DNA from: Sphagnum compactum
Lineage: Eukaryota
Assembly (NCBI GenBank): GCA_965153455.1
Contig: OZ234493.1
Span: 12,266,213-12,330,212, forward strand
Direction: 5' to 3'
Length of the DNA stretch: 64,000 nt
Positions 35,410 to 64,000 of the stretch are shown here, piece by piece; within the stretch, counting starts at the first letter, position 1; the number at the start of each line of letters is the position of its first letter. The notes under the pieces were generated by a model. It had not been told where the DNA came from. It worked only from the letters and a program-made list of their open reading frames with translations, and made no database searches. The position numbers and the translations under genes are program-made.

Positions 35410-35660
35410 CACTGCTAGAAATTCTGTCATATGCAACCACACCACATGCAACTGGGATGCAATTGCCTGTCGCATGCAACTGTTTTTGTAACTATGCGCC
35501 CTTTTTGGGTGTGTATGCAACTATGGTGCAACTATAATTGCCTTCATCCCAACCTTTGGATGAGTTCTGTGATATATCACCGTATATATTTGATATATCA
35601 TCATATATCATTGATATGTATATACTCATAGTTGCATGTGCAACCAAAATATGCCAACTA
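35410..35660 (+). repeat. Left TIR candidate and subterminal repeats of the CACTA element
   Basis: CACTGCTAGAAA (compare En/Spm CACTACAAGAAAA) followed by about 8 ATGCAACT/AGTTGCAT-type motifs in both orientations. Confidence 0.7.
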
Positions 35661-36297
35661 TGGTCTTTTGGTAAGCTAGGTACACATTTTTTTTAGGCAT
35701 GTCTAGGATTAGGGTTGCCTACAAATGACAATCCCATTGATAAGGTTTAGGATATAGGTGAAAAATAACCTAATATATTTTGCCACACCTAAAATAATGT
35801 ATCTATCCCCAACTTTTAGTAGCTTGCTCCACAAACATTTAGAAGACAATTTACAACTGAAGATATCAATTTTACTTACAATAGTTTATCACTTGATGAA
35901 GCAAAACAATGTATATGTGTATTCAACAAGAAGGTCCAATTAATCCCCTCAAGATTACAATATGTGGGTTTGACATGTGGAAATAATCTATTTTATTCCA
36001 ACAATTATCCAGTACAAGTGAGGGTCTCATGGCACATAGTCCATGTAATGCATGAGTTGGTTCCAAAGTCAGCCTTGATAGTCCTGATGGGTAGACATGT
36101 GACTAAAGCACACATCAGAAACCAGACATGAAAACACATGCTATTGTCCCCCTTAACAACCATAACCAGACAATATGCAAACCCTGGAAAGGGTTACCCA
36201 AAGAATATCTCAGAATAAGAAGCTCTATCTGAACCCCAACTTCACTCAATACATAATTTCTTGCTCATAAATGTTATTACATCCAACTACAGAATGT

Positions 36298-38546
36298 TTA
36301 ACCCATGGCATACTTCTGGCTCCAATTCCGTGCTGTGGCTTCATATTTGGCCCTGTCAGTCTTGTACATGTGAGCGATTTCGGGTACTAGTGGATCGTCA
36401 GGATTGGGGTCAGTCAACAGCGAGCATATTGAGAGCAAGACCTGCCCCACATATCAAGACTTGTTAATTTCCACATCTCAACCATCAAAACCAAGCAAAA
36501 CTTTAGAGGTCCAGGTTAGTTAGAAAAAATAGGATTAGAATACAAGGTTCAGGGTTAAGCACAAAGTTCATACCAAATTTGCATGTTAAGTGGTAAGAGA
36601 AAAATATTTCAGATATATGCACTTGAACTGAAATGTGCCGACTAACCAGCACAGATCCAGAACAGGGCTTTCCGAACACATTAGAGAGCCCATAAGGAAC
36701 ATGAAGTCCAATATTCCTGTTGATCCATCCAAGTTCCAACAATCCCATAACAAAGTATTTACTCCTACATTAAAAAACTGGAAGAAACCCTATTCAAAAT
36801 TGCATAGGGACACTCCAGGTACAAATCTTGGAATAACAACTCTGGAAACACACCAGTGACCAGCAATGCTCACTATTGATACACCTATTTAAACGTGGTT
36901 GGGGATTAAATACTAACAACCATCTAAAATGCACACCGACATGGATGAGGATGAGCAAAGAACCTTAGAAATTGTCAGTGCTCCTTGAGGAGATCCAAGC
37001 AAATACTCCCATTGCTATTGATATTAGGATGAAACACCTTCGTTCTAAATGCAACCTGCGCAATTCCAAGGAACCAAGAACAAAATGATACATCTCTGTG
37101 GGTAACAACTTGGTCATATGGACTTCACATGGAATAGTGACCTAAAATGGGCCACTTGGAAGTCCTTCAGCCTCAAACCTGATACAATTTCCCGTAGCAC
37201 CTACCCACTCTCATAATGTTATGACTGCACACATTGTCATGTTGCCTTCAACTGACTGTTATGGGAAATTCTCTGTAATTTCACAGATATGTGGTTAAGT
37301 CAGATCCCTTCCATCTATTTTGGACATGTGGTTCATTGTACCCATTGACTAGACACTGACAAGAGTATGTGGTGACATTTTCCATCTCTAGATTACAGGA
37401 CACAACTCATGGGTCATGGAGAGGTAGTCTGAGAGAAGAGTATTAACAGACATTTCCATCTGTAGATTAAAGGACAACCGTTATGAAGCATGGAGGGGTA
37501 GTCTGGGGGAAGAGTATTAACAGACATTTCCATCTCTAGATTGAAGGACAAACCTTGGGGGGCTTGAAGGGGTAGTCTGGAGGAAAATGAATCATAACCA
37601 AAAATACACCTCCAGCATAGGGACTATCAGGTGGACCCATGATTGTTGCTTGCCAATGGAACATATCTTTTGCCACAGGACCTGTCACACCCCCCACAAC
37701 CATCAAGGAAACATCAATTTCACAGAACTTCTTGAGAGCAATGGTATGAAAAACAGAGACTGACTGAAACACTAGACTAGTCATTTCTGCCCAAAGGACC
37801 AAAAGCCACAATTAGCAATGAATGCAAAAGCACTCACACAGGATGCTCTTAGAAGACCCCGGCATTCTTTTTGTGTGCATGCATGAAGGAGGTCAAATGT
37901 ATTAAGTTAAGGTGCTGTTCTACTAAGAGATCATTACGGATATAACCAGAATATAGAGAAGAAGAAAAAAACCAGTACTAGAACATGAAAGACCTGTTCA
38001 GCAAGGGTCAAAGGAGAGCATAATGCTGTCCTCATCAAGCATCTTGAAACAAAGCTTGGTTGATGATGCTCCGTGATGGCTGCTCAAAGCACAAATGACA
38101 AAACAAAGACGAAAGAACAGACCACAAATACATAAGCATTGTGAACTAAACCCTAACAAAACAAGCTTGGTTGATGATGTGCCATGATAACTACTGCCTA
38201 AAGCACAGTCACAAATGACTGAATACAGAAGAGACCAAAAGACACATACGGATTTTGAACCAACTAAACCCTAGAGAATGCAGCACCTTTCAAAAGCCAT
38301 TCTCTACATAGTCACAAACTCACAGCCATATCACGCAGTCACGAGGTGATCAAATACGACCATTTCTTCAACTATCAAGACAAAATATTACACACAGGAA
38401 AAGTAATACTTTCAGAACGACAAAAATAGTGGCGAGAGATTGGGACGACAGGGGTACAAGGAAGGAGGATGAGCACCCGGCTCTGCATGATGTAGGTGGG
38501 TCCTTTCGAAGATCTTTCAACTCTTCGGAATTGTCTTGGAGGCCAT
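36298..38546 (-). pseudogene. UBC: Full-length ubiquitin-conjugating enzyme E2 (UBC8/9/10 class) pseudogene, 4 exons
   Basis: Exons about 38546-38477, 37681-37554, 37055-36964, 36441-36298: [77 protein letters not shown] 1-nt deletion in exon 1 gives a stop at codon 10; exon 3 is 92 nt, lacking about 13 nt at EQWSPAL. Confidence 0.92.
37374..37582. repeat. About 74-bp tandem repeats in UBC intron 2
   Basis: GACATTTCCATCT.TAGATT..AGGACA...GGTAGTCTG recurs three times; the last copy overlaps the exon 2 donor end. Confidence 0.75.
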
Positions 38547-38789
38547 ATGGAAACAGTAGTAACAACTTCAAGTCCTTCAAGTCTCAGGTGCAGCAGCAAA
38601 AACGAAGCTGCAAATCTCAATGCGTCCATACAACAACAGTAGCAGCAGGAGCAGGAGAGCCACAGCTACGACAACTGGGAGGAAAAGACAGCTACGAAGA
38701 AGAAGAAGCTCTTGGAGAAACAAACCCTGCCTTTCGGGGAGTTCTCGGCGGTTTCACACCGTCCATAGTCACACTTCCTTCCCTCTATT

Positions 38790-39545
38790 CCCCAAAATTG
38801 TAAACATGACCAACACTTCCCTTGTGCAGCACAACCTCAAACGCTTCAGCCACATCTTCACAGTACAGGTAGCTTCGCACATTACATCCATCTCCATGGA
38901 TGGGGAGGGGCTTCCCCTGGCCAAAAGAATGAATGTGGGAATGAGCTTCTCTGGGAATTGGTTTGGTCCATACACATTATTGCCTCGTCTGGTGATGACA
39001 GGCAACCCATATGAGCGGCCATATGCCATCACCGGCATTTCTGCACCAGCCTTGGTGGCTGAGTAGGGATTTGTGGGAAGCAGCTGCGATGCTTCATGGT
39101 TTCCAACAATTGCATCAGCCTCAGTCTCTCCATAGACCTCATATGTGCTCACATGAATGAAGCGGTGGACAGTGCCTGTCACTTTGCATGCCTCCAACAA
39201 CACATGGGTCCCATAGATGTTGTTCTTTGTGAACTCAATACTGTTGCCAAATGAGTTGTCGACATGAGTTTGGACGGCAAAGTGCATAATGGTGTCAATA
39301 CCCTCAGTAATGAGAAGGTAGTTCACAAGATCTGCACTCCCAATGTCACCTTTCACAAACTTGAAATTCTTGGAGGACTTGGAGGGCAACAGATTCTTCA
39401 AGTTGGAGCAATAATCCAACTTGTCTAGCACCACGATCTCGTAATGTGGGTAGTTGCGCATCAGTCTGTTGGCAACATGAGATGCAATGAATCCTGTTGC
39501 ACTAGTTATCAAGATGCTTTTGGGAGTGTATGTGGCTTCCCCCAT
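38790..39545 (-). pseudogene. RHM1: 5' fragment of UDP-L-rhamnose synthase (RHM; UDP-glucose 4,6-dehydratase domain), truncated
   Basis: YTPKSILIT.ATGFIASHV..LDKLDYCSNLKNL..QTHVDNSFGNS..PTNPYSATKAGAEM..NNVYGPNQFPEKLIP. A frameshift at about 38918 continues as KPLPIHGDG.NVRSYLYCEDVAEAFEVVLHKG.VGHVYNFG, and similarity stops at about 38790. STDEVYG has become STYEVYG. Confidence 0.93.
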
Positions 39546-63405: not shown

Positions 63406-63820
63406 GTTAGGGGCACTATAGGTCGGGAGCTAGTTGATTTTTGAATTATAAAACTGACATATTTTGAGTAGTTATGGCCTTTTTTGGGTGTCAATGATAT
63501 TTTAGACATTGTCAGGTTTAATAGACCTGATAGAGTGATGGATTCCTGGTTGCTGTAATTGGAACAATGGCCATTAAACCCCATTGGATGGAATTTCAAT
63601 GTTATGACAAAGGGTAATTTGTTGGTTAAGTAACTGCAGATTTGTTACATGCAAAATTGCAAATCACAAATCTATGTGTGTAATATTTATTGGTTGATTT
63701 TTCAGCACTAGAGGAATATAATAGAGACCTGATATGTATAATGTACATTAGTAAACTAGGTGTAGGTGTGCTCCTAATGCTAATGTGGCAATGCTTAATG
63801 CTACTAATCCTGATACATCA

Positions 63821-63913
63821 TAACCCTAAACCCTAATCCTAACCCTAAACCCTAACCCTAAAACATATTTAACCTGTATGATGGAAAACCCTAACCCTAA
63901 ACGTAACCCTAAA
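63821..63913. repeat. Short degenerate telomere-like CCCTAAA/CCCTAA array
   Basis: About 10 mixed 6- and 7-mer units in two clusters. Confidence 0.85.
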
Positions 63914-63920
63914 ACATAGG

Positions 63921-63981
63921 TCAGCAGTTGCATATGGAACTCAGCAGTTGCATATGGAACTCACCAGTTGCCTATGCAACT
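63921..63981. repeat. 20-bp tandem subterminal-type repeats (x3)
   Basis: TCAGCAGTTGCATATGGAAC x2 plus TCACCAGTTGCCTATGCAAC; each is an imperfect AGTTGCAT/ATGCAACT palindrome, the same motif as at 35428-35660. Confidence 0.88.
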
Positions 63982-64000
63982 AAATCTAACGGTTGTTGTG

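Follow-up and report, generated by a model that had tools for sequence, protein, structure and literature searches.

Transposons of the En/Spm type and the CACTA superfamily to which they belong are bounded by CACTA...TAGTG termini of about 13 bp, generate a 3-bp duplication upon insertion, carry subterminal repeats at both ends and encode a TnpD transposase of the Transposase_21 type together with a second gene. In this study, a stretch of 64,000 nt from the peat moss Sphagnum compactum was analysed (assembly GCA_965153455.1, contig OZ234493.1, positions 12,266,213 to 12,330,212; hereafter the window). The part from 35410 to the window end at 64000 very probably represents the first ~28.6 kb of one copy of a multi-copy, cargo-carrying CACTA (En/Spm-type) family, with a predicted total length of about 29 kb. 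The cargo comprises pieces of at least four host genes, with UBC, RHM, DNA-PKcs and a glycoside hydrolase family 3 gene (GH3) among them.

The Sphagnum element is similar to En/Spm in the type of its termini, the subterminal repeats at both ends, a TnpD with Transposase_21 and the presence of a second gene; of the superfamily features, the 5' terminus, both sets of subterminal repeats and the TnpD-type transposase are present in the window copy itself. In En/Spm the genes are nested in one transcription unit, whereas the two genes of the Sphagnum element stand head to head. Also unlike En/Spm, its second protein is barely recognisable as Transposase_24, it measures about 29 kb, contains at least four host-gene pieces and has telomere-like repeats in the right subterminal region. 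Soybean Tgm-Express1 and Ipomoea Tpn1, CACTA elements with intron-containing fragments of several host genes, differ in being non-autonomous, much shorter and of angiosperm origin.

A preliminary description of this locus had regarded gene capture as known mainly for non-autonomous elements. This view is dated, since transposase-bearing CACTA elements holding gene fragments are described from Chenopodium. In the passages on the complete Jozin-type CACTA-like elements of this genus, a transposase is found together with captured gene fragments and satellite arrays (PMC8978399). As in Sphagnum, the fragments lie outside the transposase coding sequence and tandem repeats are located near one end; the Chenopodium fragments described there are few and short (for example 80 bp of AP2, and Neprosin pieces) and the host is an angiosperm, whereas the Sphagnum element holds multi-exon pieces of four genes, one of them a whole coding sequence, in a moss. 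Pack-CACTA and other Pack-TYPE elements of Arabidopsis, rice and maize likewise enclose transduplicated pieces of several host genes between CACTA ends and co-amplify them, judging from the relevant parts of PMC6379663 and PMC8903248. Pack-TYPE elements are by definition non-autonomous and without transposase (PMC8903248, same parts). The Sphagnum element shares with Pack-CACTA the host fragments within a CACTA-type element, but TnpD domains and a TnpA-like gene are present in the family; under the packFinder rule as given in these parts, any transposase match places an element in the class 'autonomous or derived from autonomous' (PMC8903248). No bryophyte is named in the Pack-TYPE passages of PMC8903248 and PMC13317346, and moss, bryophyte, Sphagnum, Physcomitr and Marchantia have no occurrences in the covered text of PMC8903248.

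In Sphagnum, no other classified repeat type is as abundant as the terminal inverted repeat (TIR) CACTA superfamily, which makes up 6.8% of the genome according to the main-text passages of Healey et al. (PMC9946827); elements of the type in the window are therefore part of that count. These passages give no family structure, cargo or termini, while the supplementary tables may list families. No description of a cargo-carrying CACTA element in Sphagnum or other bryophytes was found in full-text searches of one literature library, supplements lying outside these searches. That CACTA elements are abundant in Sphagnum and that transposase-bearing members of the superfamily capture genes is already published.

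Termini, related elements and copy number

The left boundary of the element lies at 35410, where the sequence reads ...GGGGAATTTA followed directly by CACTGCTAGAAATTCTGTCATATGCAACC... The TTA at 35407-35409 is the candidate left copy of a 3-bp target-site duplication (TSD), of which the right copy would lie beyond the window end at 64000. It precedes the left TIR CACTGCTAGAAAT (35410-35422, plus strand), as the preliminary description had noted, and the depth of DNA reads rises in the bin containing this position (35002-35668). The terminal 12-mer has a single exact occurrence in the window; four further matches at two mismatches are at chance level (5 found versus 7.07 expected). When both strands of the window were searched with the family consensus, 35410 was the only match at 0-1 mismatch and 28 others were found at two or three mismatches, a total of 29 versus 24 expected. 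A second terminus with fewer than three mismatches was looked for on both strands of 35423-64000 and none was found. The left end is therefore without a nearer partner inside the window, a pairing that had been named beforehand as an argument against a single element.

The left subterminal region (35423-35640, plus strand) contains TGCAAC(T) repeats and is 83-85% identical to the left ends of two complete relatives, L046 and L020. For the motif TGCAACT, 25 occurrences were counted in the window where 14.8 would be expected, and one of 100 shuffles reached this number. Its occurrence near both ends, also reported earlier, was confirmed: near the left end there are four copies on the plus strand (35447-35533) and a single one on the minus strand (35630; 35447-35636 overall), and copies at 63926 and 63946 on the minus strand and at 63975 on the plus strand (63926-63981 overall) near the right end. 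The latter belong to a 20-mer with AGTTGCA, repeated three times at 63921-63981, with which the right subterminal repeats start (63921-64000, plus strand). Since this array reaches the window end, the window stops inside the right subterminal region and the element continues past it. A telomere-like (CCCTAAA)n run is located just before the array at 63817-63910 on the plus strand, and eight CCCTAA(A) motifs were counted in 63400-64000.

Metagenome contigs were scanned with the last TnpA-like open reading frame (ORF), which gave 125 relatives; 80 loci with 68-97% protein identity were kept and all locus counts refer to these. The right end TTTCTAGTAGTG was present in 31 of the 80, at 772-2254 nt (median 1157) past the ORF and with 24 distinct flanks. 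The family terminus is therefore CACTACTAGAAAT, a canonical CACTA end, and the CACTG of the window is an A>G variant; the CACTG end type proposed in the preliminary description is correct for this copy but not for the family. Of the related right ends, 24 distinct ones were compared over their final 1.2 kb; AGTTGCA occurs there in 3-9 copies and CCCTAA motifs are present in all 24 (1-27 each, with perfect tandem heptamers in 12). CCCTAA(A) motifs in the right subterminal region are thus a family trait, and such telobox-like sites in a transposon end might be relevant to chromatin targeting.

Two of the related elements are complete. L046 (4490-12595) is a deletion derivative of 8.1 kb, reading TTA, CACTACTAGAAAT...TTTCTAGTAGTG, TTA, and keeps a TnpD remnant. 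L020 (4188-11463) measures 7.3 kb, is flanked by ATT on both sides and has one mismatch in the right repeat. A 3-bp TSD is present in both related elements of which both flanks could be read (2/2), the window copy providing only the left TTA. The left 0.7 kb of L046 and L020 matches the window at 35407/35410-36069/36087 with 83-85% identity, and their right parts match 61881/62973-63809 with 88-92%. Both window ends therefore belong to one element type, which speaks against a composite. Because of the distance between ORF and terminus in the relatives, the right terminus of the window copy is predicted at 64174-65656 (median 64559), beyond the window, for a total length of about 28.8-30.2 kb. 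Directly past the right terminus of locus L023, a stretch (1492-1904) was found to be 74.6% identical over 417 nt to window positions 33314-33726, 1.7 kb left of the insertion; chance, membership of both stretches in one gene family or a preference for such targets may account for this.

Raw Hi-C DNA reads with the same species label were placed on 33001-53000 at 90% likeness or more (n = 11373): 3043 were at least 99% alike, 7141 were 95-99% alike and 1189 were 90-95% alike. Summed depth was 2.2, 2.6 and 5.3 in the three left-flank bins (33001-35001), 60 in the bin containing 35410 and 18.8-211.8 (mean 78, median 63) in the 26 bins of 35669-53000, so that the depth of the interval is about 19-23 times that of the flank. 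The cargo is included in this rise, with 68-73 for the UBC bins, 138-192 for RHM and 34-57 for DNA-PKcs, next to 56-212 for TnpD. As the depth is raised from the bin of 35410 onward, the interval is a repeat of roughly 20 copies which carries the cargo along. As far as an uneven Hi-C library with three flank bins goes, the copy number is roughly 10-40.

Logan contigs from two other runs, one of them labelled as a different species, were compared with the window. High-depth pieces are 98-99% identical to it, with 178 of 13095 aligned bases differing (about 1.3-1.4%). One piece spans 37537-38786 without gaps, covering UBC exons 2 and 1 and the end of RHM; since high-depth contigs of two runs are gap-free there, the UBC frameshift and the RHM-UBC junction appear to be family-wide and to extend beyond the window copy. 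A minority joint 37240/52508 in contigs of two runs (depth 18-34 versus 400-600) marks derivatives without TnpD, formed by a 15.3-kb internal deletion. A similar layout was seen in locus L039, where 38007-38260 is located 1.3 kb before 52971. The left flank is scarcely covered by runs X8 and X9 (other labels), with depth 0 in bin 34335-35001.

A segment of 542 bp (50140-50681), in which the DNA-PKcs exon-1 piece is contained, is missing from nearly all copies of run X9 (joint depth 250 of about 240). Among the raw reads of X21, about 26 are also without it, and the joint shows microhomology of 3 nt. This deletion marks a subfamily dominant in another species label.

Transposition genes and host-gene cargo

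The TnpD-like gene proposed earlier was confirmed on the minus strand by the Pfam domains Transposase_21 and DUF4218. Its N-terminal exon (46336-48259) contains Transpos_assoc and Transposase_21, the latter with Pfam E=6.4e-40 and 1.8e-13 (137 and 51 bits), and has private 1-bp deletions at 46985 and 47030. The C-terminal exons (41671-43471) contain DUF4218 (42591-42890, minus strand, E=4.9e-32, 111 bits) and DUF4216 (41719-42435, 25 bits), with a third private 1-bp deletion at 42880; DUF4216 and Transpos_assoc (26 bits) both score slightly under the Pfam cut-offs. By tblastn, TnpD is colinear with full-length CACTA transposases (938-1102 amino acids, aa) over 48052-42447 at 41-51% identity, and with P0128, a relative of 30-44% identity, the alignment continues to 41671. 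The nearest long relatives among 5.8 billion proteins are 41-49% identical, with 143 at E<=0.001 among 4135 candidates. A gap of 2.9 kb in the coding region (43471-46384, tblastn) is an intron or an insertion. It holds a 97%-identical duplication, 43659-44121 and 45662-46124, with a spacing of 2003 bp, of which the plus-strand ORFs attract RNA reads in the direction opposite to TnpD. The plus-strand ORFs within the gap gave no Pfam match.

The second gene region (54525-63405, plus strand) recurs among the 80 related loci, its individual segments being found in 4-80 of them. Candidate open exons are found at 55483-55977, 58751-59764, 61951-62559 (one internal stop) and 63058-63405. The 337-codon exon, open in the window copy, matches Pfam Transposase_24 at E=0.0019 and 18.8 bits, under the cut-off of 28.7, and an hhalign comparison with angiosperm proteins bearing Transposase_24 gave a weak match (E=6e-4, probability 28%) over 44 columns at the domain start. 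No Pfam match and no usable ESM Atlas match was obtained for the last exon. Relatives of the TnpA-like exon are 14 proteins, which come solely from three named Sphagnum species and from metagenomes. In each of the 11 related metagenome copies that were examined, the TnpA-like exon contains 1-9 stop codons. The TnpA-like gene of the preliminary description therefore stands as a region conserved in related loci, but its assignment to Transposase_24 falls below the cut-off; position and conservation in the 80 loci fit the label 'TnpA-like', for which the similarity is weak. TnpD (minus) and this gene (plus) are arranged head to head, with their relative orientation unchanged in L046.

A 1.9-kb insertion in this region (59998-61874), with a flanking direct repeat TTCATTT, is absent from most relatives and partly shared by L009; it showed no terminal inverted repeat and no Pfam match. 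A near-perfect palindrome lies inside it at 61144-61294. Between the two genes, the ORF list gave an acidic reading frame of 376 codons with two stops (48893-50029, plus strand), of which the two outer pieces, on either side of 49367-49681, were scanned with Pfam and gave no meaningful match. Twenty further ORFs of the remaining stretches had Pfam matches at chance level only.

All four host-gene identities proposed in the preliminary description were right, as was the statement that the genes inside are broken: UBC is frameshifted, RHM, DNA-PKcs and GH3 are partial and TnpD is split by its three deletions. RHM and UBC occupy the stretch from the left terminus to the end of TnpD, whereas the DNA-PKcs and GH3 pieces are enclosed by the two transposition genes. 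UBC is the only whole coding sequence, the others being fragments of 37% (RHM), about 7% (DNA-PKcs) and about 9% (GH3). The earlier notion of a family able to move whole genes is thus correct in that cargo was amplified with a multi-copy element, but 'whole genes' is overstated, as whole coding sequence is limited to UBC, which is frameshifted.

UBC, an E2 ubiquitin-conjugating enzyme (Pfam UQ_con, 2.3e-14; exon translations), is present with all exons on the minus strand, its ATG lying at 38546 and its stop at 36298, with a 1-bp deletion in codon 9 of exon 1. Three tandem copies of a 74-bp unit span the exon-2/intron junction (37374-37585, 81% matches), and this triplication also occurs in a gap-free high-depth contig of run X8 covering the whole array (37171-38786). 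The RHM piece (UDP-glucose 4,6-dehydratase / rhamnose synthase; 38770-39545, minus strand) is a 5' fragment encoding aa 1-260 of 699, identified with Pfam Epimerase/GDP_Man_Dehyd and tblastn. It has one frameshift near 38901-38919 and is 91% identical to a Sphagnum magellanicum protein and 92% to metagenome proteins. In the RNA run, 1754 of 2117 placed reads fall in the class of 90-95% likeness, and 400 mRNA reads (399+1 by first-mate direction) splice across 37052-37551, the position of a UBC intron. These mRNAs are taken as transcripts of the parent UBC and RHM genes elsewhere. Sequence upstream of the RHM piece, to about 41.0 kb, also draws RNA reads of this class.

The DNA-PKcs piece (50425-52115, plus strand) is a 5' fragment found by an all-protein HMMER search and tblastn. 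It consists of five exon pieces and their introns, lacks the start codon and corresponds to aa 24-290 of a protein of 4062 aa. Its 162-aa ORF matches P0248 (4062 aa) at E=6e-17, a protein named DNA-PKcs of the liverwort Riccia sorocarpa with the domains DNA-PKcs_N, CC1-2, CC3, CC5, FAT, PI3_PI4_kinase and FATC; searches of the DNA-PKcs-like ORFs against Pfam, PDB (phmmer) and ESM Atlas gave nothing useful. The captured piece starts inside exon 1, because a metagenome protein of 139 aa which resembles the exon 1 of the parent agrees with the window from 'REAAEE' onward but no longer does so upstream of it. A close parent evidently exists in this moss, to judge from exon-1-like proteins of 94% identity. 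At 51658-51756, the terminal part of a DNA-PKcs exon is duplicated in inverted orientation, forming a near-perfect palindrome with 46-nt arms (91%). DNA-PKcs gene models, full-length or N-terminal, were seen in Riccia sorocarpa and in the fern Adiantum capillus-veneris (P0248 and P0254). To our knowledge, the gene is absent from flowering plants.

GH3 refers to glycoside hydrolase family 3: the fragment at 53409-53564 (plus strand) matches residues 328-379 of the barley beta-glucan exohydrolase ExoI at E=1e-9 in a PDB phmmer search. Regular-expression motifs for auxin-type GH3 and for glycoside hydrolase family 3 found no match, and Pfam also missed the 60-aa piece. The surrounding stretch (53216-53703) is present in four related loci. 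Outside the element, the left flank contains an ORF of 216 aa (13659-14309, minus strand) which may represent the N-terminal exon of a bZIP transcription factor.

Alternative explanations and state of the window copy

In the reading preferred here, the family would move by cut-and-paste, each insertion leaving a 3-bp duplication. The 13-bp termini CACTACTAGAAAT and the subterminal TGCAAC(T) repeats would be the binding sites of TnpD, a DDE transposase, and of the TnpA-like protein. Genomic pieces of host genes, introns included, would have been acquired by an ancestral element, and the loaded element would then have been amplified to roughly 20 copies, by which the cargo became a repeat. Several observations weigh against it. 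The right TIR and right TSD of the window copy fall outside the window, past 64000, the TnpA assignment is weak and the copy number rests on the three flank bins mentioned above. The TnpD bins have a poly(A) RNA depth of about 0 in the one RNA run. The related loci are subfamilies of 83-95% identity, probably of other moss species, and the UBC and DNA-PKcs pieces and the RHM coding piece (38770-39545) were present in none of the 80, with up to 10 kb upstream of the TnpA-like ORF covered. Sharing of the cargo is therefore shown by read depth and without assembled second copies, except for the GH3 region (four loci) and 38007-38260 (one locus).

It is quite improbable that the interval is a composite of two or more CACTA elements or fragments, nested or abutting (for example a TnpD part on the minus and a TnpA part on the plus strand), in which the end at 35410 would not be paired just past 64000. 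The opposite strands of the two genes, the location of the right end outside the window and the insertions and duplications inside the element (43.5-46.4 kb; 59998-61874) would fit such an arrangement. It is contradicted by the termini, as 35423-64000 holds no other with fewer than three mismatches and those at three are at chance level, and by L046 and L020, which are bounded by matching 3-bp duplications and join the same left-end type to the same right part, L046 with TnpD in the same orientation; depth is moreover raised throughout the portion covered by reads. It is very improbable that a host region with an old CACTA element was duplicated, segmentally or in tandem, and that UBC, RHM, DNA-PKcs and GH3 are decayed resident genes of that region. 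This reading could appeal to a copy number known from depth only, no assembled second copy with UBC, DNA-PKcs or RHM coding pieces having been retrieved, but it does not explain why depth steps up in the bin holding the CACTG terminus, nor why related elements stop exactly at the TIR in 24 different flanks and the GH3 region travels with them in four loci. Four unrelated truncated gene pieces within 18 kb and in mixed orientation, with DNA-PKcs beginning inside exon 1 and RHM ending at aa 260, also argue against resident genes.

The state of the window copy was assessed from the reads. An extra T behind 46985 is present in 76 of 94 DNA reads, an extra A behind 47030 in 83 of 105 and an extra G behind 42880 in 38 of 46; the window copy is therefore broken at three TnpD sites where most copies are not. 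Adding the majority bases in silico at 46985 and 47030 gives a continuous TnpD ORF of 642 aa, and the G at 42880 fuses two ORFs into one of 260 aa. With these three 1-bp deletions relative to the read majority, the TnpD frames of the window copy are interrupted and it does not have this feature of an autonomous element. Against the contigs of run X8, the window has T/A where these have C/G at 157 places and the reverse at 79, an excess which is consistent with C>T decay of a silenced copy. The window copy is dead: its TnpD has private frameshifts, C>T and G>A changes are in excess and its terminus reads CACTG.

For the family as a whole, it is conceivable, with a small chance of being true, that it is still autonomous and mobile and that the cargo has acquired a function, as chimeric transcripts, a source of small RNA or a protein fragment, and is more than a set of inert transduplicated pseudogene pieces. 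The read majority restores the TnpD frame at all three breaks, consensus-like contigs are only about 1.3-1.4% off the window copy, and the 337-codon TnpA-like exon is open. An element-specific deletion joint 33456/43612, with 40 letters between, occurs in eight RNA reads and some copies are therefore transcribed. This joint was also considered as a link to the flanking gene and rejected, since it fits a deletion variant with a filler of about 70 nt that shares 20 nt with the flank by chance. These points are set against the RNA depth of about 0 over TnpD, the UBC frameshift, apparently common to the high-depth contigs that are gap-free over 37171-38786, and the stops in the TnpA-like exon of 11 of 11 related metagenome copies. 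A more far-reaching version deserves little credence: a still-mobile CACTA family of peat mosses, encoding a transposase and permanently carrying a sense N-terminal fragment of DNA-PKcs, a kinase of DNA double-strand-break repair, just upstream of the TnpA-like gene and RHM/UBC downstream of TnpD, with the cargo used by element or host. If true, the cargo could serve for chimeric proteins, could camouflage the element from silencing or could give rise to small RNAs directed at the parent genes, by which end-joining repair at sites of excision might for instance be damped.

Meaning for bryophyte transposons

The analysis provides the first anatomy found for the repeat class reported as the most abundant among the classified ones of Sphagnum, including termini, TSD, gene order, cargo and deletion derivatives. 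Knowledge of how CACTA elements work is unchanged by it, its value lying in annotation and in the natural history of bryophyte transposons. The transduplication of multi-exon host-gene pieces by a transposase-bearing CACTA element, known from flowering plants, occurs in a bryophyte as well. For the genome of the peat moss, about twenty near-identical pseudo-copies of UBC, RHM and the 5' part of DNA-PKcs will confuse gene annotation, read mapping and the expression counts of the real genes.

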